64,000 bases of DNA, taken from an uncultured archaeon. GTDB lineage: Archaea > Thermoplasmatota > Penumbrarchaeia > JASLWR01. The first letter of the stretch is position 1; each line of letters starts with the position of its first letter. The stretch spans positions 32,001 through 96,000 of the forward strand of contig CAYFHS010000003.1 of the NCBI GenBank assembly GCA_964342815.1, read 5' to 3'. A program made the position numbers and the translations under genes. This document shows positions 1,290 to 36,492 of this stretch, one piece after another. The notes beneath the pieces were generated by a model. It saw only the letters and a program-made list of their open reading frames with translations. It did no database searches and had not been told where the DNA came from.

Positions 1290-4200
1290 CTACAAACTCT
1301 TAATAACCGCCTTCGATTTACAGTACGGGCATACCGCCACCGCCGGGGTTTTGGCGATCTTTGCCACATAGCTTTTAGAGCATTTCGGGCAGGTAAGTTT
1401 TACCTTCTTGGGTTTCGGGGCCTCCTCCGCTGCCGGCTCGGGAGCTGGTTCTTCCGGGGCCTCCGGCGCTATCTCTTCCGCGTCCTCGAGACCCTCCTTC
1501 AGCTCGGTGGCCATCTTGATGGCCTTTTCGAACTGACCCTTCTTGTACAGTTTCGTCGCATCTGATAGAAGTCCCTGAGCCGTCTTCACGATCCCTGGAT
1601 CGATCTTGTCCTTTCTGTCGTTGAAGGTAAACACCGCGTCCTCGAGAACCATCTTCGCTATGGACATGCGCCGCACGTTGATCTTCTTCTTCATTTTCTT
1701 CATCAAGCCTTCAAGAAGCGCCTTCGCATCCTCGAACTCCTCGTTTTCCACCATGCCCCCCACCTTCTGAAGCTCTTCGAGCTCTGCAGCCACGTCCGCT
1801 GCGATTCCCTCTGCAGTTTCCCCGTATTTGATTGCTTCCTGTTGCAGCTCGTCCACCTCGTCCCGGATCTTCATCTTGGCCTTCAGATCGTCTATGGTCC
1901 CTTTGAACAGTTCGTGTTTCTCTTCCATCAGGTCGAATTCTTCGGCATGGAAATGGTCCCGGATCTCGTCCACCGCATTGACTATCATTTCTTTGTACTG
2001 ATCGCTGAACAGATCATTCGACTCCAGTTCATCCAGGAAATCCTCCAGTTCATCCAGCAGGTCCCGGAGAACATCCTTTCTCCTATGGCCCCATATGGCG
2101 CGAACGCTAACCCTCAAGCGGCTGCTTTTATCGTGGGCACTTACGTAATCTTCGTCATCCATGGCATTCAATATCTCCGAGAACAGTTCCTCCTCTTCGT
2201 TCACCTCGACTCCCTTCTCCCGCAGCCGATCCATTATCCGATCGATCTCCTTGATGTTCTCCTTGGCCTCTGGTTTTATCTTGTCCTCGAAAAGACTGCT
2301 TACGAAAGCTTCCAGCTCCTTCATGGTAGCCTCCAATTCGTCCATGGATTCATCCTCGAGCTGTTCTTTGGCAGCCGTAACCAGCTCGGTACCGGTGGAA
2401 ACATCGATATCAAGTTTAGTAATGGATGAAAGCTGCGTTTCCATGTCGTTGATCCCTATGGTGTGCTTTTCGATTGCCCACTGTTTTTCGTATTCACCCT
2501 TCATATCGTAGTACGCCTCGATCTTGCGCTCCATCTCTTCGGCGTCTCCTTCCGTGCTTGCGTTCAGTGCTTCGTCCAGAAGCGATTCCAGCTCATCGTA
2601 ATCACCAATGGCGGTCATCTTGTACTCGTTGAAATCCGCAAAGGCCAGCTCCAGCTTCGAGGTGGCCTTTTCTTTTTTCTGGATGCCTATCTTCTCCTCT
2701 ATAGCAGCTCTGAGGGGTTCTATCAGTTTCATAGCACCGAGATACCGGCCCTCCTGATTCAGCGTCTCAATGGAAATGAGGCTCATGGATTCATCCTCCA
2801 TATCCGCCCCTTCCTCCTCTGCTGCCTCGATAAGCCCGGACATCTCACGAATGTGCTGGGGAATTACCTCGATGAGCTTTACCTCGATCTGCTCTTTCAC
2901 CTGGGCGTTGAGCTTCTCCGTAAGCTCCATGGCATCTGCAAGACGCCTGCTCTCCAAATAACGCTCGGCCCGGCTTATCCCGTCTTCCATGACGCCTATG
3001 TCGATGCCCAGTTCACCGCAGTCCACCATCAGCATCTCAGTGTTCCGCAGCATTATCCGTATTTTCCCCTCATCCACACCCTCCCGCTTTTCCCGAGCCG
3101 ATCCTATTGCCCTCTTCGCAAGATCGTCCGCTATGACGTAATTTCCATCCTGGAAAGCCGAGATGGCCTTGAAAATATAGGCTTCGATCTCGAATATGTC
3201 GAATCCCATCTCTTTGGTCGACTCCAGTTCCTCTTTCGCCCTGGTGATATTGGCTTCCACTTCCCCAATGGCCCTATTTTCCCGGTTCTCATCCAGCAAG
3301 GTCTGGATCTCGCCCAGCAGTACCATGCACCCCTCGGGATTCCCTGCGGCCAGATTGTCTTTTGCCCTTCCCATCAATTCCTCGAAAGCTGACATGTCCT
3401 CTATGATTTCCCGGTTCTCTTTCACAACCTGCTCTGTTTCCGATAGAAGGCCCTGCGCCTTTTCCATTAGCAGTTCCCCCACCGTCCCGATCAGACTCTC
3501 ATGCACTTCGAGAAGCGTGGTTATGGCTCCCTCGAGGTCCCCTTCTTCCTTGCGGGTCACAGCTTCCTCGTAACCTTTTTCCTCCTCGCTTACCTCGATT
3601 CCGTTCTCCTTTCCGCGAGCGATGAGATCCCCCGCCTCTTTTACCAGAGACCGGAACTCGTCTTCCAGCTTGATCTTTGCCATCAGCCCCTCGAGTATCT
3701 CCCGGAGATCCCCGAGCTTATCCTCCGCCACCAGGAACTCTCCGCTGTCGAAAAGCTCATGGACCTCTGCCACCTTGCCCCTGATATCCGCCTTGTATTC
3801 CTCTGAGAGATACGGTTTGGTATCCAAAACGCCTATGAACGAGTCGAACTCCTTCAACTGTGAACCGACCCGGGTCTCCGCTCTTGATAGCTTTACTGTG
3901 CGAACCATTTCTTCCATCCGGTTAACTGTAACTACTGTCTCATTGTATTTCCCCTCGTCGAAATGAGCCTGGGCTTTTATCATGTCACCCTCCAGTTCCT
4001 CTGTGTCCATCCCCGCCTCCTCTGCCTCGGCAATGAAATCCATGGCTCTGGTCAGTCTTTCCGTTGCAAGCTCCATGAGGTCTTCCTGCTCAAGTGCAAG
4101 GATCATGGACCTTGCTTCCTCCACGTGCTCGATGCAGCTTATGAACTCCCCTTTCCCGTTCTCCTCCACAGCCTTCTCTACCAGTTCCGCAACCCCGCCG

Positions 4201-22200: not shown

Positions 22201-23123
22201 TATCCTTCAGTCCGGATCAGCTCGTCAATGCGTGAAGCGGCCTTTCGTTCCTTATCCACTCCAACCCCCATCTCCCGGGCCTTTTCAGTAAGGGTGATGA
22301 ATTCCTGAAGTTCCGAATTTAAAAGCTCCGCGTTCTTTCGATCCCGGGCCTCTTTGAGAATCGTTTCCAAGCTTCCCGCCTTTTCCAGAAACTCCTTGAA
22401 TTCTTCACTTTCATAGTGCACCCCAAGGGCGGTGAAGCGGGTCTCGATATCATCTGTTACGAGACCAAGAACCCTTGTCTCCTCCAGGGATTTCTCTATA
22501 CTGGAGAGCTTTAAAGCGGCCTTGTTCTTTAAAAATTCTTTCTGTTTGCTGCGGACAATTTTCAATGTGGAATGACTTAATTCCAGTGCTTCTTCATATT
22601 CCTGCTTCTCAAGCTGTTTGCGTGTTTTTTCGATAATGGAGACTGTGACCGAAACGTCCATCCCCATCTCGCGATTCTCATCCACCAGTTTCTCAGTCTC
22701 ATCCAGTAGGTCACCCACCTCTGAAGAGTATCGTTCGTGTCTGATTTCATGGATCCGATCCATCACTTCGAAGGACTCGTCCAGTGAAGATTCATATTTT
22801 TTCTCACCCAACAATGACTTTGCTTCAGCAATATGTTCTTCAATGATGGCAATGTCCTCAATGATCTTTCTGTTATCCTTCAAGTATTCCTTGGCTTCAT
22901 CGAGTTTGTTTTCAGCTTTCACCATAAGCCTGGCATCTAGGTTATCCAGGGCATCGGCCCATTTTCCAAATTTTGTATTGCCCGAAGCCAAGATCTCTTG
23001 TATCTTGGTCGCGATCTGATCTCGGGTCAGCCATTGGTCATCGATCTGAATGGTCTCTTTACGCCTCTTTGGTGGAGAGCGCGATCTATTTTTTTTCTCG
23101 TTTCCATCGGTCATGGTCAACAC
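1290..23123 (-). CDS. giant (7277 aa) acidic alpha-helical repeat protein with C-terminal zinc ribbon; predicted cytoplasmic
   Basis: 21.8-kb uninterrupted ORF. E/K/L/A-rich amphipathic helical repeats with recurring ELG-x-D turns. No signal peptide or TM segment. Ends in a PEPA-rich linker and CPKC-x16-CPYC. Start is GTG 23123 or ATG 23114. Confidence 0.95.
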   Translation of the reverse strand: MLTMTDGNEKKNRSRSPPKRRKETIQIDDQWLTRDQIATKIQEILASGNTKFGKWADALDNLDARLMVKAENKLDEAKEYLKDNRKIIEDIAIIEEHIAEAKSLLGEKKYESSLDESFEVMDRIHEIRHERYSSEVGDLLDETEKLVDENREMGMDVSVTVSIIEKTRKQLEKQEYEEALELSHSTLKIVRSKQKEFLKNKAALKLSSIEKSLEETRVLGLVTDDIETRFTALGVHYESEEFKEFLEKAGSLETILKEARDRKNAELLNSELQEFITLTEKAREMGVGVDKERKAASRIDELIRTEGYIAAINTIKKHKKSLNEGMRIRRRRNCTQRLRRASRELTLFQKEARMAFPDMQEFRDLAFDALEKEDYDEVESNLDRFNEAWDQQKLELRIAKYDRDLEQRESEIDAITQMNIDLTDVGEVISEARKSISAKDFERVDASIAELDAVISEAKGDRAGKLATDQMETSGNLLERMKEKGIDVEELEVTMEKAREAFATSDNLEAYRLAQEVERGLVDLRTGARKKIVSKLLDDVKVLQSKATELWLDTGDFPEKADKAKSLFADGDYVGAKELSLEARTGLARMLNEKQMEIYQFRYDELAALSEKAREMKMDISDEMKGMYEIEKLRDAKEYDEAIEIMKELKRTLEKKLEDHEVSANEKLLEKAEDELLALEKATGRQFEDLGGLLDMVSSALDDGDYDKMGSILNDFYRIKGGYDADYKRENYTAKVQKLKNGVESLNSLGIDLNDAVPLIEKAETLLSEELFDDLEETLSELEPLYGDIITKRVKKRTGLIVKEINMLFKRLIERGTELDTDKELFNEIVHAIKGDDYLKACKLAIKSRKLLLKKDKRYTAKEVGTRLKEAKDLFQIIKDHPHIAPERVNELKSIMETVETSLESNELDEAQRSLSELTDAEEEMVGEKKKAGEIVVLMEKVNDLTQSASELSIDIEAENDILDDIDELLNNYELDETIPLLKEVYESMLSKLDLRQRDECRALLHDATERFEEYRDILEDHSLIASQLDRAQQDLDAEEYEKSLELSQSILKEIEGTRLEQWEQEIRELLRSSDKLIQETQELDGDTARVEAIYYKATYYLEKRDYENGKKYATMALDGAMKSRMALDKSAAAVLVDEIRAIKGEAESNDLPTDVLESLISEAEGFAEEARQEEISVILARAKDEFRKAEVFVLLKGTTGLMEKAVGLWLEVDEHKLIMEQAEEAYKNGEFDRASTIAGKTKEALTILIDSTFKEKMELQGKKVITLLKGAEKLGVDTRNDSRILSGLRKMKEEGRYEEATKVLLEAISSIEKKNDQRALDNAREGLENLEKTAGLESDDLNTLMEKADKALAKGNRKGFTKILEDFHTSKERFVRSLSQKKYSSEINEFESQLDEFEGVGLDVSVPRKILEEVDEALTEKRLDDAKEGLARLSDIMKDIRRVKIRDLAWENFGQAEEIVEETLVLNIDVTDSRQLLRQARRAMRQGDFIKGTSISSEVRDLCEKLRLERQSEEHSLTIKKAREFIESLRQLDDFPDLYAKDMGRVLEDAEEALEARKTDEFLKLIDEFKELENNTKLDIEKTKDARSKMTELEKLLEEARGLDIDVEDDEKDMNEAGELLGEGKYQELFALLEDTRSYLLEKIEELNEKKAVTSFEKAGETFEIYRETLRDKDMVETRISEIQELIDGRKFDEAQSLSEDLMSSMELSREKSHREELEAALDRLWEYISENEKLDIDTSKAEGLFYKSKYFTEKGELENANNSMNAAKEKAEEGRKAYEKENATRTMDEVENLMEVEAGLAIDFSELEEEINEANEFFDQGKYLKSWKMAEKIMVDLTDKITNRYLELISQGKDALSSLINKGKGLGADMTEGIARLSAVDELRDEREYRKALEQIVDIRVLAEQQIAARLAEINSDKLDDAAAELDELKEETGNDYGDLRGMLDEARKALEGIEYDELDAILAEFADARTEHNAVYLVGKYTAKIDELDAVAEDLSKLGVDMKTAGISSEVRESIEDRDFNAVTEGLTELEHEITEARDVKAKMRAKEVIGVTNKLFTEMKKLAVDVKRENKIFKEVLVAVRNRDYVTGIRLTLEARAGLLNAKRDHYREKSSQIIGNVEASMDEGRELEIDVTRVEELHEEAMKCYEEEDYEEAFKLIEEARSSYAKDRCEYFREKASKSMELMKSMLTQAGELWIDVDEFQDILSEMKRDYDEESYEDMLEKSEGANSDLAASIEEKLLENIGKKAEVLAKIMDEALGLDVDVVPERQGLQNVEELKQQKKYNDIIDLLDHSMKSIEEKIAAKMKEINSEKVGKVREELEALEEETDMNYDDLWEFLESAENAFNEVDYSSQDSIIQEFRKAKADHYQQYLADRYDKKAKELLRESEELKELGLTLTPAIELLETVKENVDNFDFTETEATLEKIEEQIENAKTEQAKELAKNHFIKTKKLLTELKGKELKLEEENKAFQRAIAAIKSKDFVTACRLTRQAVEMAENAREQYYKERAEEELEWSKDMVIEGVDLDLEFIHECLERAEDEYDEADYEKSIQSVDAARSDFKERRTAYWKKRAEDALEKVRDKTKEGYELELDMQDVETLIADAESYFQEGDHERVMELTREAEEKYSAQRRDHFMEKGQRSLAQLDEVLVEGNELGLDTGKIQETRGLTASLFDEGHYERAIDMAEQGRKDYHLLRQAHFKENTDAVLKKLKTMIGEASEFEVDISAVKDDLRNIRSLYDQKEFQEAQELSENSMRELRREIDGEQITRLNDEITGLEEEMDSARGIETDIREEEDGLTSVENMRAEGSYRDCIIRVGQLRSATKQKYELKIAEVNAGKLEETMESLENFSEETGGEYPDLDELAASAGKALEEKDYTVFEELLERFRTTKEDENRKYLFTKYKGEIEELEGEVPPLAELGLDLSSVEELVGTTREHMESYEFEMVIDDIASIREGLLEVRNVGAKNLAKKHFLSTKSVLGELKELDLVVEEFDILFKKAIASIKGRDFVSACQLFLEAGESMAEARKEYYRGSTEETVNNIKKFMGEAAELELNVTAFTELDERVRESYEDGEFEEAHGLALECSLGLQAAINTELLVIIEGKADKFESIAAEALKIDANIEAEKVSLAEADRLREKERYREIISLLENAISSAIVKIEERTFEMNEERFEGAKEALEELEFETGVNYPDLHSQLDEAKEMLVEKNYTDLVPSLMEFDKAREMLYISHLMKVHNERIGGIEEELGAIRDVGIELADTDELSGTARVAINEERFEDAKAVMDELDGIIDEAKSVKAKQIAKSNFTETNKLLTKLKRLGIDLTSEEAVFREILGAIKTRDFLKSIQLTRSVREKLDGVKKDHSRNKAVAAIQSLEGMLGDAGKRITDVISIEKIHSKAMEHFEEEDFDNALLMVGQAKQEYDEKRKEFQQEMLTGSMDRLQNLISEAGELDMDVSVPERNLAQLKSSFDSEKFDEAEELAGDTISTLESTMEKRYLTVIEERTGELARVMEEGVGLGVDMKAERERLSATMDLRTEKRYPEILIVLKECYDSVANSVGDRRRELNTEKLREIMDSLESFKEETGGAYQDLDSLLDSAGAALNREDYEAMEGFIDEFLEAKEGHNNRHMAEGYAARLEEMEKEVGELENIGLSLENVHDLLRIAKENAETFVFKGIETKLSDIETVIDRASSVEAKKLAKKHFIRAKELIAELKETGVDLEEENRLFREAITDIKAGEFVKGAGLTQRSEKLLVEKRKNYYVEATESELEKVDYFIIEAREVDLSLDEILESSKEAREFLEEKLYPQAFTLSRATAAALREMLNVRLKEILDDERAQMESGLEAARKLDLVLDNVTDALAMAGECQQAGDLRKAIDLLRNERPALDEAMRGRTRELTEQAVITAKENLGAFMEITEKDYPDLEGFIENATMSLEDNDYEGAKEHLGMFDEALAGYEGDRRADNYRVDLRSREPEIAAITEIGIELTDIFDLVSQASQLISSHDFEVLEETLVLIDQGIEHARKVTAKDAARDRIATAKGLFDKLTELDLELDEEKKHFGEVLSKIKEGDFVKACKMADGATEMLRKKETEYQRSRAEEALAAAENSLEEIRKLDVETAAVEKSLGEARVFYEWKDYPKSEETARTTVERAEYLKEEYRKKSVFVMIEGVEEALKEGAELGIDTASMAVEIADAYGLVNEGNLEEAERMARETNDLFLSTKKTRIEEITTTSFETARKLMEKSVELGLDTVSIETMLEYANIHFEDGEYESAQELIDQARETLVEMIGGKELEGADSEIAAIESLMREAGKYSVDVGEHEGRFARMNQLRNDGAYNEIITLGREIRESITEKIDLSRSEINSRRLSDAMAKLDEHTSETSEEHPGMEAALNAAREAIEVGDHVAVDSKIDEFEELLKESKRKAALSAYYQRLDMLTGEVTALGDAGIDVTATEELLANVGSELNFQRFEAAETILGKLESIVHEGRTVTARKLAKKHAGEAMKLFSYLGDHGVDLQEEKALFREVRTHVVEERFTDACRILINIKSKLNAAETKYHTEQSSRAIKDLHASMSEAIELEIDVSDLQPSESEARAAYDEGLFDAALENSMLIIDELGVRIGKKRWETVVSELTLLEPVLEEVRAMSIDIDEESSRISEIEALKDGWKFQEALGIIGEVKRSLLEKTEDMNRTDNLEKIDVSARSLADLEEMTGKVYEELHGHLETASKALLESDHTAVNSILESFHADLESSKREYMSDSYSSRLIVLEEDMTRLASVGIELTEAAEFIAGIRNDISSENLGRTGEGLAVVEKLLDEARGEGAKEMARTLFAETKKLMTDMKESGVEAGDVEGTFRQAVISIKNSDFLTGCELLLESRKVVSAALDAYYEERAHSTLAELDKLIHEAEEMGGIDLDDVLSMMETGRNLLVEENYGESHDIVGRAVALVRERIRLRWEDILAEKTDEVNQIVQRSMEFGMEVRDELERLGPVSVLREEGRYGEAVELVGAVGISLSNKHKEGMGLKNAQKLSEAELAFKQFQEMTGDESEALGAHLIKAREAITAEDHAALEEHLDSFSHMREDQSNILLARKYQDELDGFQEIFESYREVGLDISPGIGMISEARSSISENRFGIMEDIISRLGDFKESAANVQAKEIAKVHLGEAKTLLVEVKGLGVEMESNGEIFSEVLGAVKARDFVSACHAAVQVKKRLSDSRKKHLESNADLLLEDTANRLAEAKELGLDVAAVEDIVGNAHAELSEGKLEEASNLAKEAKVNLDAVFDEHFREKYLATAELAERMLFDLKSLGVPTAVVEEKFANATSLFNDSMIREAYVLIEEVAGEISRSRGDSLRERAAKAIETAKIVHTRCGELGLELSSAEEILINAQTSFEEGSFEEAFNDAEEAAKLLSEAEEKYLKRDTSALISAVWNMMGESSEMGLDLGPIEEKIAMAQESLKEGELEVSYALAIASRSELTEKINTKLQVSYEAEYEEFSGILAQFQETGADTDNERNQLAGIEELKKAGNYTEAVSTLIKLKMSVLEEIENMQEEATTRKISEKISTLEELEKTLGQDLSDLKGMLLSSQEAVGNKNLDAADALLRQFDVVIEQYLGEMKVKDFQDRIEELSDSVIQLGELGLDASKGLELLSIIMEGVQENDIASIEENIPHLEDYVKHAKTVDARELAKRHIVEIKKLFGEMKADGIDTSREDEMLKDVVGAIKDQDFIAAIQLTKKAHESLIAQRDRHFTEDVSELLAETRTLLGEGGELGLDTAVMESKLAEGQHHFENGDFQLAAEHASQAKEMFQTAKQHHYRDFTTAALGVVQELMIDEMELEVDMVAVEDMVANAKRNLEKGNFERSAKYAGEAKSALLTAQNEYSRNNASAEIENVRAMVEEAEKLDLEVSFARQALGEMEEHFGQGRFREAREVAKETQGTVRQSLNARLKSDIRAEMVKLSPLMDTARELNLDIREDTSVLARVERLKDLGKYYEAMSTVKGIETSLANKIHLYRRRAGGDRLVRAMDKVTVLEKEILEMPGLDMDITELKDLLSSATAASDSSDFESAESFLEEFFTAEEKYSNVLIDAYPKEVERLAKELMAFNEIGIVLAVAEELVNSIKENIGEGQLEPARELRNQVLEIINDAGKAPAKDIAKQHITSLKISFKYLKEREVDLTEEETLFRKVLVALKEENYVKGIQLMLRVEERLGQKRQEFFKTGIGSVLADVDRIVRQASQKKLDIRDSRKLAFEARALLKRKKFEKSMELAEKARSLLTEVWQNSLEENARIALEEIRAAMEEKSGGPLELGGVAELVEKAVEENGKGEFISCIEHVEEARSMILALEQEDLMELATERLTRAMDFIAEAEEAGMDTEELEGDMIKAQAHFDEGKYNETVVTVNRMEEMVRTVKLSRAETRVGSQLKEFDSFIGVLDTKPYLSEEYKADIRGKVAEVHELFDSGEFLVAEDKLGDLREILEGLMAKIKLEDEFRSLVKEAGDLIARGKENGIEVSEEEKGYEEAVTRKEEGDLEGAITTLLEVHESLIGTVGELLMEKAQGLLSETEQVVKENREIIEDMSAFEELMGRAKDNLAAGNPEGCMVLLGEIQTLLDENRENRAIGEVEANITRAKEELESTKEMGFDIFEIEAYIFKAISAFQDGNYVIADDLAKRAIGSAREKREGVDEGKIRIMLRNTEMLMVDCGELGIDIGVMEDGISRAERYLESRRLADAMELTEKLNAQVKEQIEVKLIEVIPQHIREMSGLIEAAEEEGADMEDESMSLISIETLNQEGRYLGAMKLIEPLRAAIEEKIGIQKKEKATSKLELAFADFNEYKMTAIGDYDELESLLDEALNASTEGDAEEMERKIEAYYDMKGEYEKQWAIEKHTIGINDMETQLSSITKLDIDVSTGTELVTAAKEQLEDESMDELEATMKELEAFVSSLFEDKIKPEAKENIKEIDRIMDRLREKGVEVNEEEELFSEILNAMDDEDYVSAHDKSSRLRVSVRAIWGHRRKDVLRDLLDELEDFLDELESNDLFSDQYKEMIVNAVDEIRDHFHAEEFDLMEEKHELFKGTIDDLKAKMKIRDEVDELQQEAIKYGETAEGIAADVAAELEELQKVGGMVENEEFEDAKALLEGLMKKMKKKINVRRMSIAKMVLEDAVFTFNDRKDKIDPGIVKTAQGLLSDATKLYKKGQFEKAIKMATELKEGLEDAEEIAPEAPEEPAPEPAAEEAPKPKKVKLTCPKCSKSYVAKIAKTPAVAVCPYCKSKAVIKSL
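2265..20732 (-). repeat. 14 copies of a marker module (consensus roughly AKxHF-x-KxLxxELKxxGxDLxEExxxFxxxxxAIKxxDFxxACxL) defining higher-order repeats in the giant ORF
   Basis: Aligned Ala/Thr codons located at 20730, 18774, 16977, 15786, 14205, 13212, 12021, 11028, 9639, 8646, 7650, 6063, 4659 and 2265. The copies are diverged at the DNA level. Confidence 0.9.
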
Positions 23124-27592: not shown

Positions 27593-27737
27593 ACTGAGAA
27601 GGTTGGATAAACACCTGGATCGAAGCCGTTCACACTGCACTGGCCGCTCTGAAGAACTTTTATGCAATAATATTAAATATTTGGTATTCATCTCTATTAG
27701 TACCATTAATAATATAAATTCTATTAGGAAGGGATTC

Positions 27738-30700
27738 ATGTTGAAATTGTATTCGATCGCAGTATTAATCACATTGCTTTTTCCCGGTATGGCGTTATTT
27801 ATAGCAATGGGGATAGAAGCACCTAGCGTGTGGACCGAGAATGGTTTTTCCAGCGGTACCGGGCGTAATGTTTACATCAACCCTCACGACGAGATACGGC
27901 TGGCAACCGTGGAAAAGGAGATCGAAGACGATCTTATGGACTCGAACGATATAAAGATAATTCAAAATCTTTCACACGACACGCAGGAGGGTAAGATCGA
28001 CGTTATCAAGACAGAGACTTTTCACGGCGGAGCGAATTCCGAATACGGTAAAAAGATACGTCCCACTACCGATGGAGGATACATAATTGTGGGGTCCACC
28101 GAATCCGAGGGTTCCGGTAACAGCGATGTCTGGCTCATTAAAACAGATGAAAATGGCGATAGGCTGTGGTCGAAGACCTTCGGTGGAAGCCAGTACGATT
28201 ACGGGAAGGATGTCAGGCAGACGGCTGACGGAGGATATGTGATAACTGGCAATACCTACTCGTACGGGAACGGCGGCCATGATGTTTGGCTTATACGGAC
28301 CGATGGTAACGGTGATCTGCTCTGGGAAGAGACTTATGGCGGCGGTGGAAACGAATACGGGGAAGGAGTTTGCGAAACAACGGACGGCAGTATAATTATC
28401 ACGGGATGCGATTACCACGGCGGGGACGATCCTTGGAGTGAATTATATATCATTAAGACCAATGCCCAGGGTAGTGTGCTATGGAGCAGCACTTATGGAA
28501 ATTGGGGAGACTTCAGTTGGGGCCTTTCGGTTATAGAGACGAAAGACGGACAGTATGCGGTGGTGGGTTTTACTGAATCGTACGGTAATGGTCGTAAAGA
28601 CATTTGGCTGTTAAAGTTCAATCAGAATGGAAACTTTAGATGGCACGGAACATATGGTGGAAGCGGTTTCGAGAGAGGTTTTTCGCTTCAGGAGACCGCT
28701 GACGAAGGTTTGATATTGGTAGGATATACCTCCTCGTATGGAAATGGAGGGAACGATGTCTGGCTCGTAAAAACGGACAAGAACGGCCAGGAGATGTGGA
28801 ACCGGGAGTATGGCGGTGAGAAGGATGATGAGGGTTACAGCGTAAGGGTAACTGCCGATGGAGGTTACATCATATCGGGCGGCACCTGGTCATCCGGGGC
28901 GGGGAACAGAGACGTGTGGATCATCAGGACCGACAATAATGGAATGAAATTATGGGACCGGACCTATGGAGGGGGCAGCACCGATTACAGTGAATCCATT
29001 GGCACGGCAGCCGACGGCGGTTACATGATCCTGGCTACATCATACTCCTTCGGGGCTGGGAAATACGATATCTGGTTGATAAGAACTGATAGCGCGGGGA
29101 CCTGCCAGTTCACCCAGGGGCTTCTTGTATCCACCAATCTTCTCGGATCGAGTGCCGCGTTCCTGGATAAGTTCGAATATTCCTGTTCGATACCCAATGG
29201 AACTCAGCTGCTGGCCAGTTTTTCCCAAGATAATATCACTTGGTATGATAGCGATGGAATTATCCACGGGAAAGACGGACTTACGGATGGAGCGTGGTGG
29301 CTGAATTTATCCGGGTTGAAGTGGAATACTTCTTCATTCTACTACAGAATAGAATTCCGCTCACCGAATTCCGAAAGTCCTGTTCTTAATAGTGTACGTG
29401 TGTTATACGGAGAATTTTATCCTTCGGGAGATTACGAATCGGCATTCTTCGATAACGATGAATATCTCATATCCTGGAAATGGCTCACCTGGACCGAAAC
29501 CCGACCTCCGAGCACACGGCTTGCCTTTCAACTTCGCAGCTCTCCGACCTTGGACGGAATTTCGGCTGAATCGTTTCTGGGACCGGACGGTAGTTCATCT
29601 TCGTACTACACAAACTCAGGAATGGACATCTGGGAAGGACATCATTACCACCGATGGCTGCAGTACAAGGTCTATCTTGAAACCGAAGATTTATCCACAA
29701 GTCCAGTGGTTGCCGATATCATGATCTCCTATAACGTGCTACCCAGGGTGGAAGTTGCAACTCCTGAAGGCGTTCAGAACGGAAATATCGAGATCGATTA
29801 TCTCCTCTATGACGGGGACTCGGATGATATTGACATCATTGTACAGTATCGTATCGGATATTCTTCTTATCGGGAAGCCACCCTCGCAGCCGGGAGCGAA
29901 GGGACCGATGGTCTATTTTCCAAACCTGGAGGTGTGCAGCATTCGTTCATTTGGGACTCATCAAGCGACCTCGGGAAGGTTGATGAGGATAATGTCTTCA
30001 TAAAGATCACTCCATCGGACGAGGAAACCGGCACACCATCCACCACTGTGAGGTTCACCGTGGATAACAAAGCACCGGATTTCATCTCAATCTTCCCAAC
30101 GGATCACGTAAATTCGAGAAAGGTAAAGATTGTGGTGGAGACAGATGAGAATGCTTTGATGAGATGGAGCGAGGCAAATCAGAGCTATGAGCTTATGACA
30201 AACCAGTTCACGGAGGGAGAGGGCGAAACAAGGCATACCGTAACTGTAAATGCCCGGGAGGGGATAAACACTATTTATGTTAGTGCCACGGATTCCTTTG
30301 AAAATTCCCAGACCTACGGAACCCATATCGAATTTACAGTTGATACGAAAGCACCTGAGAACATAACAATATTGATCAACAACGGTAACAAGTATACGAA
30401 TTCAACATGGGTCACCATAACTATTATAGACACCAGAGCGGCCTTGGACGCATACGAGATAAGAATGAGCAATGACCAGGATTTTCCCGATGTCCCTTGG
30501 GATTCCTTCACAAGTACAGACACATCTGACGGTGTGTCAAACTGGACAAGTAGTGACTTGTCAAGCGAGCGCATGTGGAACCTCACTCCCGTAGACGGGC
30601 GCAAAGCGGTATATGTGGAACTGAAAGATGAAGGTGGAAACGTGGCATTATTCCAGGGAAGCATCATACTGGATACCACACCACCCATATTTCTGGTCAC

Positions 30701-31928
30701 AGGTCCCGATACCGAGCAGGACTCATTGATGGTGAATATAACCGTTACCACCAACGAGGAAGCCTTTCTCCGCTGGTCGTCAGTGGATGTCGGTTATTAT
30801 TCTATGACGAATCTATTCGAAAAGGGAGAAGGGACTGCCATCCATTCCACATTGGTCAATGCATCCAACGGAAACAACACTTTGTTCATTTCCGCCTTGG
30901 ATCTTAACGGAAACGCAATGTCGTCGGGGATAGCTCTCAACTTCAGGGTAAACGCCAAGAACGGAGGTGATGGTTCGGGGAAAGGCGATGGAGAAAACCA
31001 GAGTGAGGGGAGTGGAATCAACTGGAAATGCTGGATAATCGTTCTGATAATCCTAAATCTGATACTGTTCATTATTTTGGTCATTAACAGAAGGCGAAAA
31101 AAACTTGCGGAAAAAAAGGATGCCGAGGAACCCCGACGGGTTCGGAAAGAGGCGCTGCTGGCATCGCTTCATGCGGGAGGAACTCCTGCAATTTCGGGAG
31201 GCGATTCCACCGATTTCAGCTACAATGTTCAGGCACCTCCGTCGTATACGGTTGGAAAAACGTACCTTCCACCAGTACAACAGGGTATCCTGCCTCGAGT
31301 CGCTTCCTCATCGGCACCGCAGCCCCCGTCTGCAGCGGAGGTAGAAGCGAGATATGCAGCGCAAGCAGGCCCGAGCGTTTCCGGTGCTACTGCAATCGTA
31401 CCTATCGATAAACCAGCGGTGATCGCAGCAAGTGCTCCTGCCAAGCAGGTCACCGCCCCCCCAAGCCCGCAACCAATGATCGCAGCAAAAACCCCCGAGG
31501 TTCCAAAAGAACTGGAAGACGTGTGGAATTTCGCGAAAACACCCCCCCCGGACACCAAAAAGGTCACGCCCTGGGCAGGGGTGTCAGCCGGGCGGCCCGG
31601 AGAAAGTCCATACGATAAAAGTACCCTAAATGAGAGTGGAAAACGGAAGGAAGCTACCCCGGACCTGAGCTCGCTGCTTTCGGAGCTTAGAAAGGATATC
31701 CCCACCCGCAAATCCCCGGTGGAAAGCCCAAGCCCCGCTGCATCCCCACCAAAAGTCAAAGCAAAGGTCGGAAGATATGCAGACAAGATATCTCACAGTA
31801 TAGATTTCATTCTGGACAAGTACGAAGAGAAGGAAGAAGAAACGGAGGAGAAAAGTAACAAGAAACCGCTGGCGAGCATCCCTATAAGGAGGATAGCCAT
31901 CACAAGGAGGAGAAATACGAAATTTTGA
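27738..31928 (+). CDS. large single-pass cell-surface protein: signal peptide, 7 x ~52-aa Gly/Trp propeller repeats, beta-sandwich/Ig-like domains, TM helix, Pro/Ala-rich cytoplasmic tail
   Basis: Hydrophobic N-terminus MLKLYSIAVLITLLFPG. Seven T[YF]GG...DGGYI..G.T.S.G.G..DVWLIKTD.NG..W repeats (about 28017-29105). TM WIIVLIILNLILFIILVIN followed by RRRKK. Confidence 0.88.
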   Translation: MLKLYSIAVLITLLFPGMALFIAMGIEAPSVWTENGFSSGTGRNVYINPHDEIRLATVEKEIEDDLMDSNDIKIIQNLSHDTQEGKIDVIKTETFHGGANSEYGKKIRPTTDGGYIIVGSTESEGSGNSDVWLIKTDENGDRLWSKTFGGSQYDYGKDVRQTADGGYVITGNTYSYGNGGHDVWLIRTDGNGDLLWEETYGGGGNEYGEGVCETTDGSIIITGCDYHGGDDPWSELYIIKTNAQGSVLWSSTYGNWGDFSWGLSVIETKDGQYAVVGFTESYGNGRKDIWLLKFNQNGNFRWHGTYGGSGFERGFSLQETADEGLILVGYTSSYGNGGNDVWLVKTDKNGQEMWNREYGGEKDDEGYSVRVTADGGYIISGGTWSSGAGNRDVWIIRTDNNGMKLWDRTYGGGSTDYSESIGTAADGGYMILATSYSFGAGKYDIWLIRTDSAGTCQFTQGLLVSTNLLGSSAAFLDKFEYSCSIPNGTQLLASFSQDNITWYDSDGIIHGKDGLTDGAWWLNLSGLKWNTSSFYYRIEFRSPNSESPVLNSVRVLYGEFYPSGDYESAFFDNDEYLISWKWLTWTETRPPSTRLAFQLRSSPTLDGISAESFLGPDGSSSSYYTNSGMDIWEGHHYHRWLQYKVYLETEDLSTSPVVADIMISYNVLPRVEVATPEGVQNGNIEIDYLLYDGDSDDIDIIVQYRIGYSSYREATLAAGSEGTDGLFSKPGGVQHSFIWDSSSDLGKVDEDNVFIKITPSDEETGTPSTTVRFTVDNKAPDFISIFPTDHVNSRKVKIVVETDENALMRWSEANQSYELMTNQFTEGEGETRHTVTVNAREGINTIYVSATDSFENSQTYGTHIEFTVDTKAPENITILINNGNKYTNSTWVTITIIDTRAALDAYEIRMSNDQDFPDVPWDSFTSTDTSDGVSNWTSSDLSSERMWNLTPVDGRKAVYVELKDEGGNVALFQGSIILDTTPPIFLVTGPDTEQDSLMVNITVTTNEEAFLRWSSVDVGYYSMTNLFEKGEGTAIHSTLVNASNGNNTLFISALDLNGNAMSSGIALNFRVNAKNGGDGSGKGDGENQSEGSGINWKCWIIVLIILNLILFIILVINRRRKKLAEKKDAEEPRRVRKEALLASLHAGGTPAISGGDSTDFSYNVQAPPSYTVGKTYLPPVQQGILPRVASSSAPQPPSAAEVEARYAAQAGPSVSGATAIVPIDKPAVIAASAPAKQVTAPPSPQPMIAAKTPEVPKELEDVWNFAKTPPPDTKKVTPWAGVSAGRPGESPYDKSTLNESGKRKEATPDLSSLLSELRKDIPTRKSPVESPSPAASPPKVKAKVGRYADKISHSIDFILDKYEEKEEETEEKSNKKPLASIPIRRIAITRRRNTKF

Positions 31929-32172
31929 TAATATCAGCACGCTCATAGAACTGGTTCCTCAAAGGAAACCCTGGAGCATCTAGTACGGATTTATTAATCC
32001 TGCGCAATCATGGCCAGTGAGCTAAAGTGAGTGGATTTGTTCCCACGGGGATGGTTCCACCTGCTGTAAAATATGATAAATGCTGGTGAAATAAGGTGAA
32101 TCTATATATATCATAAATGGAATTAAACGGCCAATAATGTCTCTAAATATATCTTTATAGGAAGTGGAGTTA

Positions 32173-35100
32173 ATGATTGTATTTGGTAAGAATAGAACTA
32201 TTTCGTGCCTTATTTGCGGAATAATAATGTTAATTGCAGCGTTTTCGGGAATGGTAAATGCCGAATCCCCGGAAGACGAGATACGGATGGAAGTAAAAAT
32301 TGATATTGACTCCCATCATGCCCTCAAGAACGAAAATATGATGAGCTTATCGGGATTGAAGAACTCAGTTCCCAATGGAATGGGGGACCTTGATCCCCTG
32401 GCTCCCCTTGCGCGCGGTAGAGGAGGGTGGTCCATTGCCGAGAAATGGAACAACAAAACACTATTGAATAATACCATTTTCGATATTGCCACCGGCGACC
32501 TTAACGGCGATGGATACGCGGATCTGGCCGTTGTGGGCGAGAATCATACCATTGCAACCTATCACAACAATCATTCATTCGGTTTCAGAAAACATTTCGT
32601 GGACATAGACAATAACAAGAACTACAGCCGTGTGGCGCTCGGTGACGTCGATAATGACGGAGACCTAGATATGATGACGGCAACCTGGCCGAATCCGGTG
32701 CAAAACCCCACTTCCCTGGACCTTTATCTGTATGAGAACAAGGGAGCCGGGAATTTCATCGGTGGAGGCGGAGTCCACAAAGTGGATGTGGGAGCTGCGG
32801 CGACATACGGATTTCTATTTACAATAACCTTAAGGTCCGGAGATTTCAACAACGACGGAAAAGCGGACTTCGTCCTGGGTATAAGCCATAACCATCCGAA
32901 CCACGTTGGTGACGGTAATCCCGCCAGAGCAACTATCTTTTTCCTTTTGAACAACGGTGCCGGCGGATATGCGTCAACCTCAACAACGATTGATACTTCT
33001 AACAATCAATGGGGCGTGCTCTGGATTGCTGCCATCCAGGCAAAAGAAGCCACCGGCGATAATTTCGACGACGTTGTGTTGAGCATTTACGGCTATAACG
33101 AATATCAGGTAAGTTATTATCCGGGCGAGATAAGGGTCTACAAAGGGGGCGCACAGGGAATAGTACTTCCCAATGCCCACTGGAGCTACCAGTACAACCA
33201 AAACGATGAATGGACCTTCACGGTTGACGTGGGCGAGTTCACCGGTGACGGTAATCCCGATATATTGATATCCACCGATGCAGAGAACCAAAACGGAGAC
33301 TGGGTTGACGGGAAAGTTTGGCTTGCCACGGGGCAGGGGGCTCAGGGATATGTAAACCCGGTTGCAAAGTTCACGGTACAGGGTCAAGGAACCGGTTTTT
33401 CTATGAACGTATACAATTTCGACGATGAAGACAGGGACGATTTCGTTCTGGGATACAGCTGGGACACGAACGCGGATGACATCATCGATCGATGGGAGTT
33501 GAGGATATACACCATAAACAATCAGGGAGCTTTCGCCCTGAAATGGTCCGACAACACAGGCCCGCAGGGTACCCTCAAAGGCAAGGTCGGTCGTATCTGG
33601 GCAGACGATTTCGACAACAGCGGTGCGGGAGATGTCCTCTATTCCGGGGAAGACCTGCGACTGCTTGACGTGAGAACCGGGTACGAGCCGGATAATATCC
33701 CTCCGGCTGCCATAATCGACCTCGGCGTTGCTCAACCTCAGGGCATGCAAAGCGATACGGTCCGGCTTGCGTGGAGCGCTCCGGGGGACGATGATAAAAC
33801 CGGGGGCCCGCCGGCATATTACATTGTCCATTATGCGGATTTCGCAATCAATATTGGTAACTTCAATACTACCACCAATGCATCAAATGCACCAAAACCC
33901 GCAGGCCCCGGCAACACCGAAACTTTCCAGATAGATAAACTCGAATCCTCAACTACTTACTATTTCGCCGTTCGCACTGTGGACGACGCCGGGAACTGGG
34001 CACCATTATCCAACGTGGTAAGCTTCGGGATACCTGATTTTGTGGTGCCGGACGGCATAAACGATCTGGCAGCTTCGTTCATTTCCGAAGACGGGGAGAT
34101 AGAACTTAGCTGGACCGCTCCGGGGGATGACGGAGATACCGGTACGGTGAACTCCTATCTCGTTGGATTTTCTGATACAAACATCGTAGACTTCGAAACA
34201 GTTACAAAGATAACCGCCGGGCTGCCGACACCACAGGCAGCAGGTGCTGCCGAGTCAATGAGGATCGATATCAACAGCACTGCGGGTCTGGATTTCGACG
34301 AGACAAACTATTATGCCGTGATAGCCAAGGACGAAGCGGATAACGAGGGAGAACTCTCCAACGTGGTTTCGGTCAAGCTTCCGGACATCACATCTCCAGA
34401 CGCGGCCTCTCTTTCTGCGGTACCCGGCGACAACGACGGAGAGATCAAAATAATCTGGCAGGCCACAGGGGACGACGGTACCGATGGGAAAGCGGATTCC
34501 TACGAGATGCGTTATTCCTCCACGGTTTTCACCGCCGACGCTTATGACAGCGCTGCCTTGGTCACCGGGCTGCCGGCTCCCGGCAATACCGGAACTTCGG
34601 AAGAGTTCGTAATGACGGGGCTGGATGGTGGGACCACCTATTATTTCGCTTTGAAGGTTTTCGACGACGCCCTGAACCCTTCGGCCGTGTCCAACGTGGT
34701 TTCCGCAGTGGCAACGGACGCCACGGCACCAGACAAGATAAGCGGTATAGAACTCGCAGATACCCTCGATGACAACGGCGGATCCCTGACCGTGACCTGG
34801 ACCATATCCGCTGCCCCCGATTTTGAGAGTTACAGGATATACGTTTCAAAGTCCGAAATCATAACACCCGACCAGGATGACATGATCCATGAGATCGATG
34901 ACATAAATACCAGTATATACAATTTCACCAAGGTGGACGGAAAAAAGCTTGTTGACGGAACCGAGTACTATGTGGGGATAACGGCAGTGGATACAACGGG
35001 TAACGAGGGAGTTCCGGGTACGGGTGCCAAAGCCAGCCCGAAGGATGACCTAGAACCCAAGATCCTCTATTTCCAGCCTTCGAAGAGCTCCTTGAAACTT

Positions 35101-36492
35101 GAGGCCGACAGCGAGCAAACTTTCAACATCACCGCAGAATTCTTTGACGATGAAACACGGAAAATACAGTGGTACGAAGACGATGACAAAATAAGGCAGC
35201 AAACTAAAAGTATTCTAATATACGAGGTTCCCTCGGAGATAGGGGATACCTTTAGCATAAAGGTGGAACTGGACGACGGTACCAGCAAGGCGGAGCACAG
35301 CTGGGACATTGAGGTGGTGGACGCTGGTCAGGGGGATGTAGGTGACGATGACGACACCGAAGATGATGACACTGAAGATGATGATGCAACTGGAGATGAC
35401 GACACCGAGGACGATGATACGGCCGGGGACGACGATACCACCGGAGATGATGATAACGATGATGATGACGGAACCGATTTCTGGACCGATAAGATCGATA
35501 TTGACGGCGACGGTCTGGACGACCGATGGGAGAAATTCTATTTCGGCGATACGGACTCTCAGGGTCGAACTGGAAATCCCGACAAGGATAAATACAACAA
35601 TGTTCAGGAATATCTGAAGAAAACCGATCCCACCAAGAATGACGATCCGCGAGCAGGCGACCCCACTGCGAACACTGGTGAAATAAGCAGCGTAAAAGAC
35701 GATAACAACTGGTTGTGGATTGCCATCGGATCAGGCATATTCTTACTGATTTTGGTGATTGTGGTCCTCCTTCTGATCATCTCGAGAAGATCCAAAAGAA
35801 GAAGAGAGGAAGAGGACGTGGTGCCAACACCTGTGGAAATACCCCAAAAGGACCTGGAGGCGGAGGAACTGTACGGACGGGTCACGCCATCCGAAGACGG
35901 TCCAACCGTGACCATCTCGTCCATGGAGGAAGACGCAGGAGACGAGGAAAGTATAGAGGTGGATCGGGATGCAATGGAATCTTTCTTTTCCGCGGTGGAC
36001 GATTCCGAGCAGCCAGCCCTTCTTCCATCGGCGGGGCCATTCGAGGGGACCTTGGGACCAGGACTATTTGCCAGCATGAATGAGGAAAATGAAGAGGAAT
36101 CCTTGAAGGACCTCACCCGTGACATCCTTGCGGAAAAGACTCCGAAAGAAGAGAAATCCCTTTCACTGGATTCACTTTTCTCACCTATTATGGATGCCGA
36201 TGGGGAGGACGAGGAAGAATTGATAAGCGAACTGGCTCCCATGGAATCCGAGGGATTCGGAGACAAGTTCCTTGATGATCTTCTCACACTGGTTCCCTTC
36301 GAAGATGAAGATATGAAGACCATTGAGCCAGAGCAAGAAACCGCCGGGATCGACGAGACCTCCACGGAAAGCGAAGAAGTTCCCCTGGAAGTTGCATGCT
36401 ACAACTGCAATAACAGTATACCGATCTACACGGATGAAAGACCGTTGATAATCACCTGTTCCGAATGCGGCGCGCAGGGCGAGATCGAATAG
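32173..36492 (+). CDS. large single-pass cell-surface protein: signal peptide, 7 FG-GAP-like repeats, 4 FN3 domains, acidic linker, TSP3-like motif, TM, acidic tail, C-terminal zinc ribbon
   Basis: GGAG precedes ATG 32173. GD[LVF]N/DxDGxxD repeats. FN3-like W-x-APGDD...YYFAV..D.AGN...SN units. TM WLWIAIGSGIFLLILVIVVLLLII followed by SRRSKRRR. Ends CYNC-x16-CSEC. Confidence 0.9.
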   Translation: MIVFGKNRTISCLICGIIMLIAAFSGMVNAESPEDEIRMEVKIDIDSHHALKNENMMSLSGLKNSVPNGMGDLDPLAPLARGRGGWSIAEKWNNKTLLNNTIFDIATGDLNGDGYADLAVVGENHTIATYHNNHSFGFRKHFVDIDNNKNYSRVALGDVDNDGDLDMMTATWPNPVQNPTSLDLYLYENKGAGNFIGGGGVHKVDVGAAATYGFLFTITLRSGDFNNDGKADFVLGISHNHPNHVGDGNPARATIFFLLNNGAGGYASTSTTIDTSNNQWGVLWIAAIQAKEATGDNFDDVVLSIYGYNEYQVSYYPGEIRVYKGGAQGIVLPNAHWSYQYNQNDEWTFTVDVGEFTGDGNPDILISTDAENQNGDWVDGKVWLATGQGAQGYVNPVAKFTVQGQGTGFSMNVYNFDDEDRDDFVLGYSWDTNADDIIDRWELRIYTINNQGAFALKWSDNTGPQGTLKGKVGRIWADDFDNSGAGDVLYSGEDLRLLDVRTGYEPDNIPPAAIIDLGVAQPQGMQSDTVRLAWSAPGDDDKTGGPPAYYIVHYADFAINIGNFNTTTNASNAPKPAGPGNTETFQIDKLESSTTYYFAVRTVDDAGNWAPLSNVVSFGIPDFVVPDGINDLAASFISEDGEIELSWTAPGDDGDTGTVNSYLVGFSDTNIVDFETVTKITAGLPTPQAAGAAESMRIDINSTAGLDFDETNYYAVIAKDEADNEGELSNVVSVKLPDITSPDAASLSAVPGDNDGEIKIIWQATGDDGTDGKADSYEMRYSSTVFTADAYDSAALVTGLPAPGNTGTSEEFVMTGLDGGTTYYFALKVFDDALNPSAVSNVVSAVATDATAPDKISGIELADTLDDNGGSLTVTWTISAAPDFESYRIYVSKSEIITPDQDDMIHEIDDINTSIYNFTKVDGKKLVDGTEYYVGITAVDTTGNEGVPGTGAKASPKDDLEPKILYFQPSKSSLKLEADSEQTFNITAEFFDDETRKIQWYEDDDKIRQQTKSILIYEVPSEIGDTFSIKVELDDGTSKAEHSWDIEVVDAGQGDVGDDDDTEDDDTEDDDATGDDDTEDDDTAGDDDTTGDDDNDDDDGTDFWTDKIDIDGDGLDDRWEKFYFGDTDSQGRTGNPDKDKYNNVQEYLKKTDPTKNDDPRAGDPTANTGEISSVKDDNNWLWIAIGSGIFLLILVIVVLLLIISRRSKRRREEEDVVPTPVEIPQKDLEAEELYGRVTPSEDGPTVTISSMEEDAGDEESIEVDRDAMESFFSAVDDSEQPALLPSAGPFEGTLGPGLFASMNEENEEESLKDLTRDILAEKTPKEEKSLSLDSLFSPIMDADGEDEEELISELAPMESEGFGDKFLDDLLTLVPFEDEDMKTIEPEQETAGIDETSTESEEVPLEVACYNCNNSIPIYTDERPLIITCSECGAQGEIE
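35341..35472 (+). repeat. low-complexity acidic DDD[TA] peptide repeat (GDDDDTEDDDTEDDDATGDDDTEDDDTAGDDDTTGDDDNDDDDG)
   Basis: Seen directly. Synonymous codons differ between units. Confidence 0.9.

Follow-up and report, generated by a model that had tools for sequence, protein, structure and literature searches.

The closest described relatives of the protein domain treated here are small zinc ribbons. The ribbon of LysW docks onto partner biosynthetic enzymes, and the ribbons of the Zn_ribbon_4/5 and MJ0042 families are usually N-terminal with about 19 residues between the two knuckles. The ribbon of bacterial ZitP binds PopZ (PMC5182065), and that of GltJ (ZnR), with 19 residues between its knuckles as counted from the Cys positions, binds its own linker and recruits MglB (PMC11135422). 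The ribbon of TMEM55B is a platform for several adaptors and acts by pairing a β-strand with a short acidic motif from a disordered segment (PMC12393467). Here, we describe a ribbon that terminates three very large proteins encoded in a stretch of 64,000 nucleotides from an uncultured archaeon of the Thermoplasmatota (the window; positions 32001–96000 of contig 3 of a 4.35-Mb genome with 116 contigs). It represents an apparently undescribed zinc-ribbon family that is used as a shared cytoplasmic end-tag. Judged by profile comparison, the three motifs are copies of one homologous domain of about 36 residues with the pattern φ-x-CxxC-x11-P-x4-CxxC-G-x-x-G-x-φ (φ, hydrophobic). This tag is a zinc ribbon without a curated family and is defined by a spacer of 16 residues between the knuckles (x16), Pro at spacer position 12 (Pro12), the second knuckle CxxCGxxG and its C-terminal position.

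The first carrier is a giant soluble protein of 7,277 amino acids (aa; 1290–23123, minus strand) whose C-terminal end reads ...KVKLT-CPKC-SKSYVAKIAKTPAVAV-CPYC-KSKAVIKSL in translation, with nine residues after the last Cys. Surface protein 2 (32164–36492, plus strand; 1,442 aa) ends in ...LEVA-CYNC-NNSIPIYTDERPLIIT-CSEC-GAQGEIE, with seven residues after the last Cys, and surface protein 3 (54236–58582, minus strand; 1,448 aa) in ...TRVQ-CHAC-GTGYEVTDSTRPVIIE-CPVC-HEKGYLSE, with eight. The ribbon of the giant (1293–1412, minus strand) comprises its last 40 aa, is of a Lys-rich flavour with net charge +7 and gives a profile match at aa 7239–7276. Those of surface protein 2 (36370–36489, plus strand; ERP flavour, net charge −4) and surface protein 3 (54239–54358, minus strand; ERP-type flavour, net charge −3) are located by translation and profile match as well. 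All three share the 16-residue spacer, Pro12 and aliphatic residues after this Pro, and upstream of each lies an acidic or Pro-rich low-complexity linker. These motifs had been reported earlier by a model that saw only the letters of the DNA (the sequence-only reading), and translation reproduced its motif strings, spacing, Pro12 and near-stop position letter for letter; for each motif its coordinates begin precisely with the codon of the first Cys. It had also called the three proteins otherwise unrelated, and at the sequence level this holds: without their last 45 aa no BLAST match among them was obtained at 1e-5. Surface protein 3 has company in a family of 22 paralogues, all of them tagged.

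A six-frame scan of open reading frames (ORFs) in the whole genome for C..C.{16}C..C returned 60 occurrences; 37 end six to nine residues before a stop, and 36 of these 37 possess Pro12. Among the 3,346 ORFs of at least 150 aa the C-terminal motif was observed 36 times versus 0 times in each of 20 residue shuffles. Profiles from which one window tag had been left out retrieved the missing member in each case, namely surface protein 2 with E = 7.8e-14, surface protein 3 with E = 1.4e-11 and the giant protein with E = 7.9e-6 (25.5 bits). On these scores the giant's copy is the most divergent member, yet clearly within the tag family. In 18 aligned tags the four Cys and Pro12 are invariant (18/18) and two Gly are found in at least 70%; in nearly all carriers the profile match extends to within 0–2 residues of the stop. 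When C-terminal CxxC pairs are sorted by spacing, a sharp peak appears at x16 (36) and a second one at x10 (20), which is another, commoner ribbon type. CxxC-x10-CxxC ribbons (zinc_ribbon_2/DZR-like) terminate about 30 further proteins, many of them longer than 900 aa (for example contig 1, 298811–303931; contig 2, 181798–186192; contig 6, 73562–78394; contig 43, 147–5102); a paralogue of the giant repeat protein is among these carriers.

The x16 ribbon is common to about 40 proteins of this genome, of which 36 are exact carriers. When clustered after removal of the last 45 residues, the carriers fall into the 22-member family with surface protein 3, a 3-member fn3 group with surface protein 2, and 11 singletons, one of which is the giant. 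Carrier size ranges from 76 to 7,277 aa, the ribbon is the last domain with nothing after it, and a low-complexity linker (poly-Glu, Pro/Ser/Thr-rich or Arg/Glu-rich, among others) precedes every ribbon. In 28 of the 36 exact carriers an N-terminal signal-like segment and one transmembrane (TM) helix are followed by a tail of 80–400 aa, rich in Pro/Ser/Thr or Asp/Glu, and then by the ribbon. Seven carriers are devoid of a TM helix: the giant, an Hsp70 of 727 aa, two TPR proteins of 564 and 344 aa, and small proteins of 209, 225 and 257 aa. A 76-aa protein whose TM helix is N-terminal also carries the tag, as do membrane proteins whose ectodomains are of the WD40, NEW3/CARDB and PKD types. The sequence-only reading had spoken of a portable module, and this is well supported, with at least 13 unrelated architectures ending in the ribbon within this genome. 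The check it had proposed, a search of the full genome and of related archaeal genomes with a profile built from the motifs, yielded many carriers and C-terminal enrichment; placement is non-random, the ribbons have one common predicted fold (see below), and carriers are enriched in type-I-like membrane topology with an odds ratio of 32 (ORFs of at least 300 aa), the p-value of which is overstated because paralogues are not independent. By hydrophobicity, judged with a crude rule, about 200 ORFs of at least 900 aa resemble single-pass surface proteins of type I, and a surface proteome of that size is unusually large for a 4.35-Mb archaeal genome. The tag is present on only about 13% of these large ORFs.

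The tagged Hsp70 (contig 13, 99380–101563) terminates in two tandem, very basic ribbons. It is an extra copy, the canonical dnaK–dnaJ pair being located on contig 2, and it lacks about 27 Pfam profile positions near the N-terminus. Besides, GrpE is encoded twice in the genome and a J-domain in 13 genes, two of which are in frames of 1,122 and 2,557 aa. On contig 2, the TPR-tag gene has a J-domain gene about 1.5 kb upstream of it; as a hint to a partner it was discarded, since with 13 J-domain genes such proximity is within chance by a rough estimate.

Of 41 related genomes, 40 contain matches to the tag profile, and the named relatives are metagenome-assembled genomes (MAGs) of Thermoplasmatota/Thermoplasmata. 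Matches per genome number 6–46 across the class; by group they amount to 35–46 in the window's own family, 3–26 in other families of the class and 0–18 in other classes of the phylum, and 164 of 251 genomes of the phylum sample are matched. Some families of the phylum are tag-free, f11 (0 of 32) being an example. The domain is class-wide in these Thermoplasmatota and not confined to one genome. Several carriers appear to recur: frames of about 720–790 aa with two or three ribbons occur in nearly every genome of the class and are the Hsp70 fusion where inspected; tag-bearing frames of about 550–570 aa correspond in size to the 564-aa TPR carrier described above; and among tag-bearing frames of about 195 aa those matched by the profile of the giant's N-terminal domain (see below) represent a carrier with similarity to ribbon-helix-helix (RHH) proteins. 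In a worldwide search of 1.84 billion representative proteins (E ≤1e-3) 1,380 protein clusters were matched, and copy statistics were obtained from the best 150 of them. There, a ribbon copy lies within 5 aa of the C-terminus in 133 clusters, a TM helix precedes the ribbons in 86 and follows them in none, and one to seven copies are found per protein; of the 335 copies, 261 have x16 as their spacer, and 248 of these 261 possess Pro12. Marine Verrucomicrobiota MAGs contain proteins of 389–440 aa with ribbons 33–36% identical to the Hsp70 tag, which are not C-terminal and are probably N-terminal MJ0042-type fingers.

Conservation of the tag was compared with that of the neighbouring protein regions. 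The same-genus orthologue of surface protein 2 shows 97% identity in the tag versus 77% in tail and ectodomain, and in 19 paralogues the tag is 50% identical, followed by the membrane-proximal ectodomain (44%), the TM helix (35%) and the tail (30%). Hsp70 and RHH-type carriers from different genomes display the basic flavour ...KRPxKIECPKCGKKGTLK in almost identical form. Going by these identities, the tag is under purifying selection and conserved more strongly than its tails.

AlphaFold2 modelling of the giant's 40-residue tag together with 18 aligned tags gave a four-strand ribbon with a mean predicted local distance difference test score (pLDDT) of 90.7. The tag is thus predicted to be a zinc ribbon that folds on its own, with the four Cys holding one Zn. 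In Pfam and NCBIfam no model reaches its cut-off for the tags, which only show scattered sub-threshold matches to ribbon families (Zn_ribbon_4, LysW, Zn_ribbon_8, HypA, DUF5817, MJ0042_CXXC and eS27). Fold searches with the tag resulted in no row at Foldseek E ≤0.001 or Z ≥4; the structural matches have Foldseek E >0.3, and the best fold neighbours (TMEM55B, ZitP, LysW and Tim15) all have Z <4. The ESM Atlas contributed only generic ribbon clusters with scores ≤0.86. Compared by sequence with solved structures, the tag is closest to LysW of Thermococcus kodakarensis (5k2m_E, E = 1.9e-6) and then to GltJ/AgmX and ZitP. In the full-text literature searched no account of such a tag or of an Hsp70 with C-terminal ribbons was found, although absence is not proof.

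LysW/ArgW (PF21344; PDB 5k2m_E and 3wwl) has the identical CxxC-x16-CxxC spacing (33-residue alignment with 5k2m_E) and the same CPxCGA second knuckle, and it is a top structural neighbour of the tag (Z 3.7, root mean square deviation (rmsd) 1.7 Å, 37 residues). However, LysW is a free protein of about 54 aa with an N-terminal ribbon, without Pro12, with an acidic tail that ends in the EDWGE attachment site, and it is encoded in lysine/arginine biosynthesis clusters, whereas the tag is C-terminal on large unrelated proteins. The PF21344 model gives 11.5–20.0 bits on the tags for which a score is listed, versus a cut-off of 27, which places them outside LysW/ArgW (NF041070). ZitP from Caulobacter (2nb9) and GltJ/AgmX from Myxococcus (7zok) resemble the tagged surface proteins in being bitopic membrane proteins that bear a small four-Cys ribbon in the cytoplasm, attached by a flexible linker; in ZitP and GltJ it is used for protein docking or as a switch. 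Their ribbons are N-terminal, single and bacterial with a longer spacer, in contrast with the C-terminal x16 tag with Pro12, which forms arrays of up to seven copies and is also found on soluble proteins such as Hsp70. An MJ0042-type ribbon is a structural neighbour of the tag (Z 3.8); 13 of the 18 tags match Zn_ribbon_4 below threshold and nine of 18 match TIGR02098 (MJ0042_CXXC; best E = 8.4e-5). For Zn_ribbon_4/5 (PF13717/PF13719) the scores stay below the cut-off, with 27.4 versus 30.3 bits for the best Zn_ribbon_4 match listed and 10–19 bits for the window tags.

TMEM55B (8oqh, 9qm9), the top VIA-align match (Z 3.9, 35 residues, 31% identity), is a membrane protein whose cytosolic portion includes a zinc ribbon, and the carrier tails of this archaeon also bear a short acidic-hydrophobic motif; we do not claim homology with TMEM55B. 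It is in contrast eukaryotic and lysosomal, with two ribbons fused in one globule N-terminal to the TM helices. Tim15/Zim17/Hep1 (2e2z) forms the top Foldseek row (TM-score 0.75, rmsd 1.9 Å, probability 0.98) but with E = 0.35. This match deserves attention since an Hsp70 paralogue ranks among the most conserved tag carriers; it is no better than those to other ribbons, zf-DNL (PF05180) is missing from the first 25 families listed for the tags, and the DNL signature was not seen in the sequences. The CxxCxGxG pattern of DnaJ cysteine-rich and Anti-TRAP domains is not that of the tag, whose second knuckle reads CxxCGxxG and whose first one has no Gly pattern; seven of the 18 tags match Anti-TRAP weakly. 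As regards architecture, PGF-CTERM/archaeosortase signals are also short, proteome-wide, strictly C-terminal tags on many large archaeal surface proteins. Signals of this type consist of a motif, a TM helix and a basic tip and are cleaved off during export. In contrast, the tag is a folded, soluble Cys4 domain at the very terminus, on the cytoplasmic side, with the single TM helix 80–400 aa upstream of it, and it is found on cytoplasmic proteins too, so that it does not belong to the PGF-CTERM type.

A cytoplasmic orientation of the ribbons is predicted from the architecture of surface proteins 2 and 3. Surface protein 2 consists of a signal segment, an ectodomain with FG-GAP and fn3 domains (Pfam), a TM helix at about aa 1188–1210, a 205-aa acidic tail and the ribbon. 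In surface protein 3 the signal segment is followed by an Ig/PKD ectodomain (Pfam), a TM helix at about aa 1128–1150, a 270-aa Pro/Ser-rich tail and the ribbon. In both, a basic cluster (RRSKRRR or RKKGKEK) comes right after the TM helix, and N-glycosylation sequons are concentrated in the ectodomain before it. Because of the FG-GAP, fn3 and PKD ectodomains, the basic clusters and the position of the sequons, tail and ribbon of both proteins are inferred to be intracellular. The worldwide order of TM helix and ribbons provides independent support, as does the presence of the ribbon on Hsp70. The tails exhibit a further feature, namely an acidic-hydrophobic motif (LDDIF, LNDIF, LEEIF, LDAYL, LDDLL) that occurs exactly once in 17 of 28 tails versus 0.9 expected from shuffles, the pattern having been defined after data inspection and most motif carriers being paralogues. 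It lies 30–99 residues upstream of the ribbon in 16 of the 17 motif-bearing tails, 15 of which belong to carriers encoded on other contigs. In surface protein 2 it reads LDDLL (36271–36285, plus strand; 40 aa before the ribbon) and in surface protein 3 LNALF (54623–54637, minus strand; 99 aa before it). This motif could be a second docking element.

Among the neighbouring genes, one located between those of the giant and surface protein 2 (27603–31928, plus strand) encodes a 1,441-aa protein without any Pfam domain, which has a signal-like segment, one late TM helix and a basic tail lacking a ribbon. The immediate neighbour of surface protein 3 is a Ser/Thr protein kinase extended by 270 aa at its N-terminus (58791–60401, plus strand), adjoined by an NTPase with HTH, NB-ARC (STAND) and TPR domains (60507–63317, plus strand).

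The ribbons occur in several flavours. That of the giant is Lys-rich with a CPxC knuckle, whereas surface proteins 2 and 3 display a neutral/acidic C[HY]xC, ...ERP... flavour. Twelve receptor paralogues share the flavour CHSCGNxYxAxIxxLPAxVTCxxCQTQGxxESL, and the giant's ribbon is a Lys-substituted version of it, equal in length and with Y, A, I, PAxV and ...SL at corresponding positions. Net charge across the ribbons of this genome varies from −5 to +10: neutral or acidic ribbons (−4 to +2) are found on the 28 surface proteins, and most soluble carriers have basic ones (+4 to +10, with +7 for the giant and +10 for Hsp70). Charge complementarity between basic soluble and acidic membrane carriers was considered as a general rule and rejected, because TM proteins worldwide carry basic ribbons (mean net charge +5.2, compared with +3.4 on other proteins).

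The giant protein has no hydrophobic segment, no TM helix and no Pfam domain. It is built from about 110 copies of a helix-hairpin unit of about 66 aa, modelled as alternating helices of 15 and 43 aa (pLDDT 90), and in the fold search this unit had no PDB match at all. Glu, Leu, Ala and Lys are abundant in its sequence, and Pro accounts for 0.8%. Self-BLAST at 1e-10 shows no repeats because they are too diverged for this threshold, but six-frame search and alignment do show them. Paralogues are present on contig 35 (3,835-aa frame) and contig 1 (299–309 kb). Orthologues of about 7,000 aa were found in two of three other genomes searched in the family, and in the third the gene is split into frames of 2,745 and 3,282 aa. 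The orthologues comprise one of 7,295 aa at 85% identity, one of 7,028 aa at 45% and a gene fragment in G002 at 28% (last 600 aa). All those compared (G001, G003 and G002) end in the Lys-rich ribbon, the identity of which is about 66% and 40% by manual count where that of the body is 45% and 28%. At the other end of the protein a BLAST match to the 225-aa carrier revealed an N-terminal domain (22806–23078, minus strand) that is common to small soluble carriers and four stand-alone proteins of about 95 aa. The first 50 or so residues of the giant (TIQIDDQWLTRDQIATKIQEILASGN) belong to this family of seven members in the genome; three of the seven end in the tag, two of them consisting of domain, poly-Glu and zinc-ribbon tag, and the four stand-alone members resemble the RHH DNA-binding motif in their second half. 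The domain was detected only in families f1, f3–f6 and f8 plus one marginal match. As a general receptor of the tag it was therefore rejected, since the tag is class- and phylum-wide and the domain is confined to a subclade of the class.

We suggest that the ribbon may be a small docking knob on a flexible tether that joins receptor tails and soluble factors at a common site under the membrane, and we assign this reading a probability of roughly one half. It would work like the cytoplasmic ribbons of ZitP, GltJ and TMEM55B and would gather a subset of receptor tails with the Hsp70 paralogue, TPR and RHH-like proteins and the giant rods. Its ligand would be a protein partner or a short peptide strand; the tandem arrays with up to seven copies in relatives would provide multivalency, and basic and neutral/acidic flavours may bind different ligands. 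The sequence-only reading had proposed a portable docking or sorting module that recruits its carriers to one partner or site. Portability is borne out by the variety of architectures, the C-terminal position and the retention in orthologues; for the single partner or site no candidate has been identified.

Several observations weigh against docking at a common site. Besides the missing partner, no conserved neighbouring gene exists at the window carriers or at the tagged Hsp70. An operon partner was rejected for these carriers, their neighbours being housekeeping genes (tRNA endonuclease, TrkAH, MetRS, helicase and SAM synthetase). The structural matches of the modelled tag are weak, as with any 40-residue ribbon. 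Moreover, the exposed residues are variable, with charges from −5 to +10, which is not as a single shared partner predicts. Owing to this variable surface several partners or a non-protein ligand fit as well as one hub, and there is room for a lipid or nucleic-acid tether, for a cap or switch and for ribbon–ribbon pairing. Co-folding of the giant's ribbon with that of surface protein 3 and two Zn scored 0.08 versus a mark of 0.32; controls were not run, and the result neither supports nor opposes binding.

First, the mostly basic ribbon might act as an electrostatic tether to anionic lipids or nucleic acid and so pin Hsp70, TPR and RHH proteins and the ends of receptor tails to the inner membrane face, the nucleoid or RNA. 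The positive mean charge worldwide and on the soluble carriers of this genome would suit such a role, as would the weak sequence and fold resemblance to ribosomal and RNA polymerase zinc ribbons (eS27, Rpo12, L37ae, bL32), the RHH-like DNA-binding motif of one carrier class and the tandem arrays, which are suitable for avidity towards a surface or polymer. We nevertheless consider this unlikely: the 28 surface-protein ribbons here are neutral or acidic and yet the best-conserved part of the tail, and membrane-anchored proteins have no need of a lipid tether.

A second possibility, rather improbable in our view, is that of a protective cap, i.e. a compact metal-stabilised knob at the tip of a long disordered tail that prevents proteasome/PAN, Lon or other unfoldases from threading in the C-terminus, or of a zinc/redox fold switch. 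The zinc-ribbon chaperone Ruc of M. tuberculosis is reported to be a zinc/redox-sensitive fold switch of this kind (PMC7448276). Within a flavour, exposed residues of the tag are conserved across paralogues and orthologues far beyond the needs of the fold, internal copies of arrays cap nothing, and the two or three copies on Hsp70 across the whole class would be left unexplained. What a cap or switch would account for well is the immediate proximity of the profile match to the stop, the low-complexity linker before every ribbon, a universal conservation limited to structural residues and the lack of an evident partner gene near the carriers examined.

It is very unlikely that the tags are ribbon–ribbon stickers that bind each other, e.g. 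the Lys-rich ribbons of giant, Hsp70 and TPR proteins with the acidic ones of receptors, in a membrane-associated network with disordered linkers as spacers and without a separate hub. The opposite charges that soluble as compared with membrane carriers show in this archaeon, the giant's Lys-substituted version of the flavour of 12 receptors and the multi-copy arrays on flexible linkers speak for it; the charge split is not general, TM proteins elsewhere having basic ribbons, and to our knowledge zinc ribbons are not known as self-association modules. Convergence of three generic zinc knuckle pairs without common origin or function is scarcely credible, for although zinc ribbons are very common and the tags weakly match dozens of Pfam and NCBIfam ribbon models, it is already contradicted by the profile, worldwide and shuffle results, namely the recurrence of x16, Pro12, CxxCGxxG and stop distance in 36 proteins versus 0 expected, the significant leave-one-out E-values and the sharp x16 peak.

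The docking reading could be extended, in a form that we regard as distinctly unlikely, to a common address tag of an undescribed sub-membrane network in these Thermoplasmatota, made up of dozens of receptor tails, giant rods, Hsp70, TPR adaptors and RHH regulators. In such a network each receptor tail would possess the ribbon together with an LDDIF-like motif, and the giant rods would present a different domain at their other end. Such an assembly would correspond, in archaea, to a cell cortex or a platform of the focal-adhesion type and would connect the cell surface with chaperoning and gene regulation.

Huge surface proteins are encoded by the hundreds in uncultured Thermoplasmatota of marine and sediment origin. 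The tag, an easily recognised terminal domain that a defined part of these receptors has in common with a lineage-specific Hsp70, TPR proteins and giant helical proteins, offers a handle on their organisation and on inward signalling. It defines a candidate interaction network from sequence alone and represents a 36-residue bait for pull-downs. A profile based on x16, Pro12, CxxCGxxG and the C-terminal position would annotate more than 1,000 currently unannotated protein clusters. If it is true that the tag addresses Hsp70 to receptor tails, this would be a case of prokaryotic chaperone targeting by a modular tag, conceptually parallel to the eukaryotic EEVD/TPR system.

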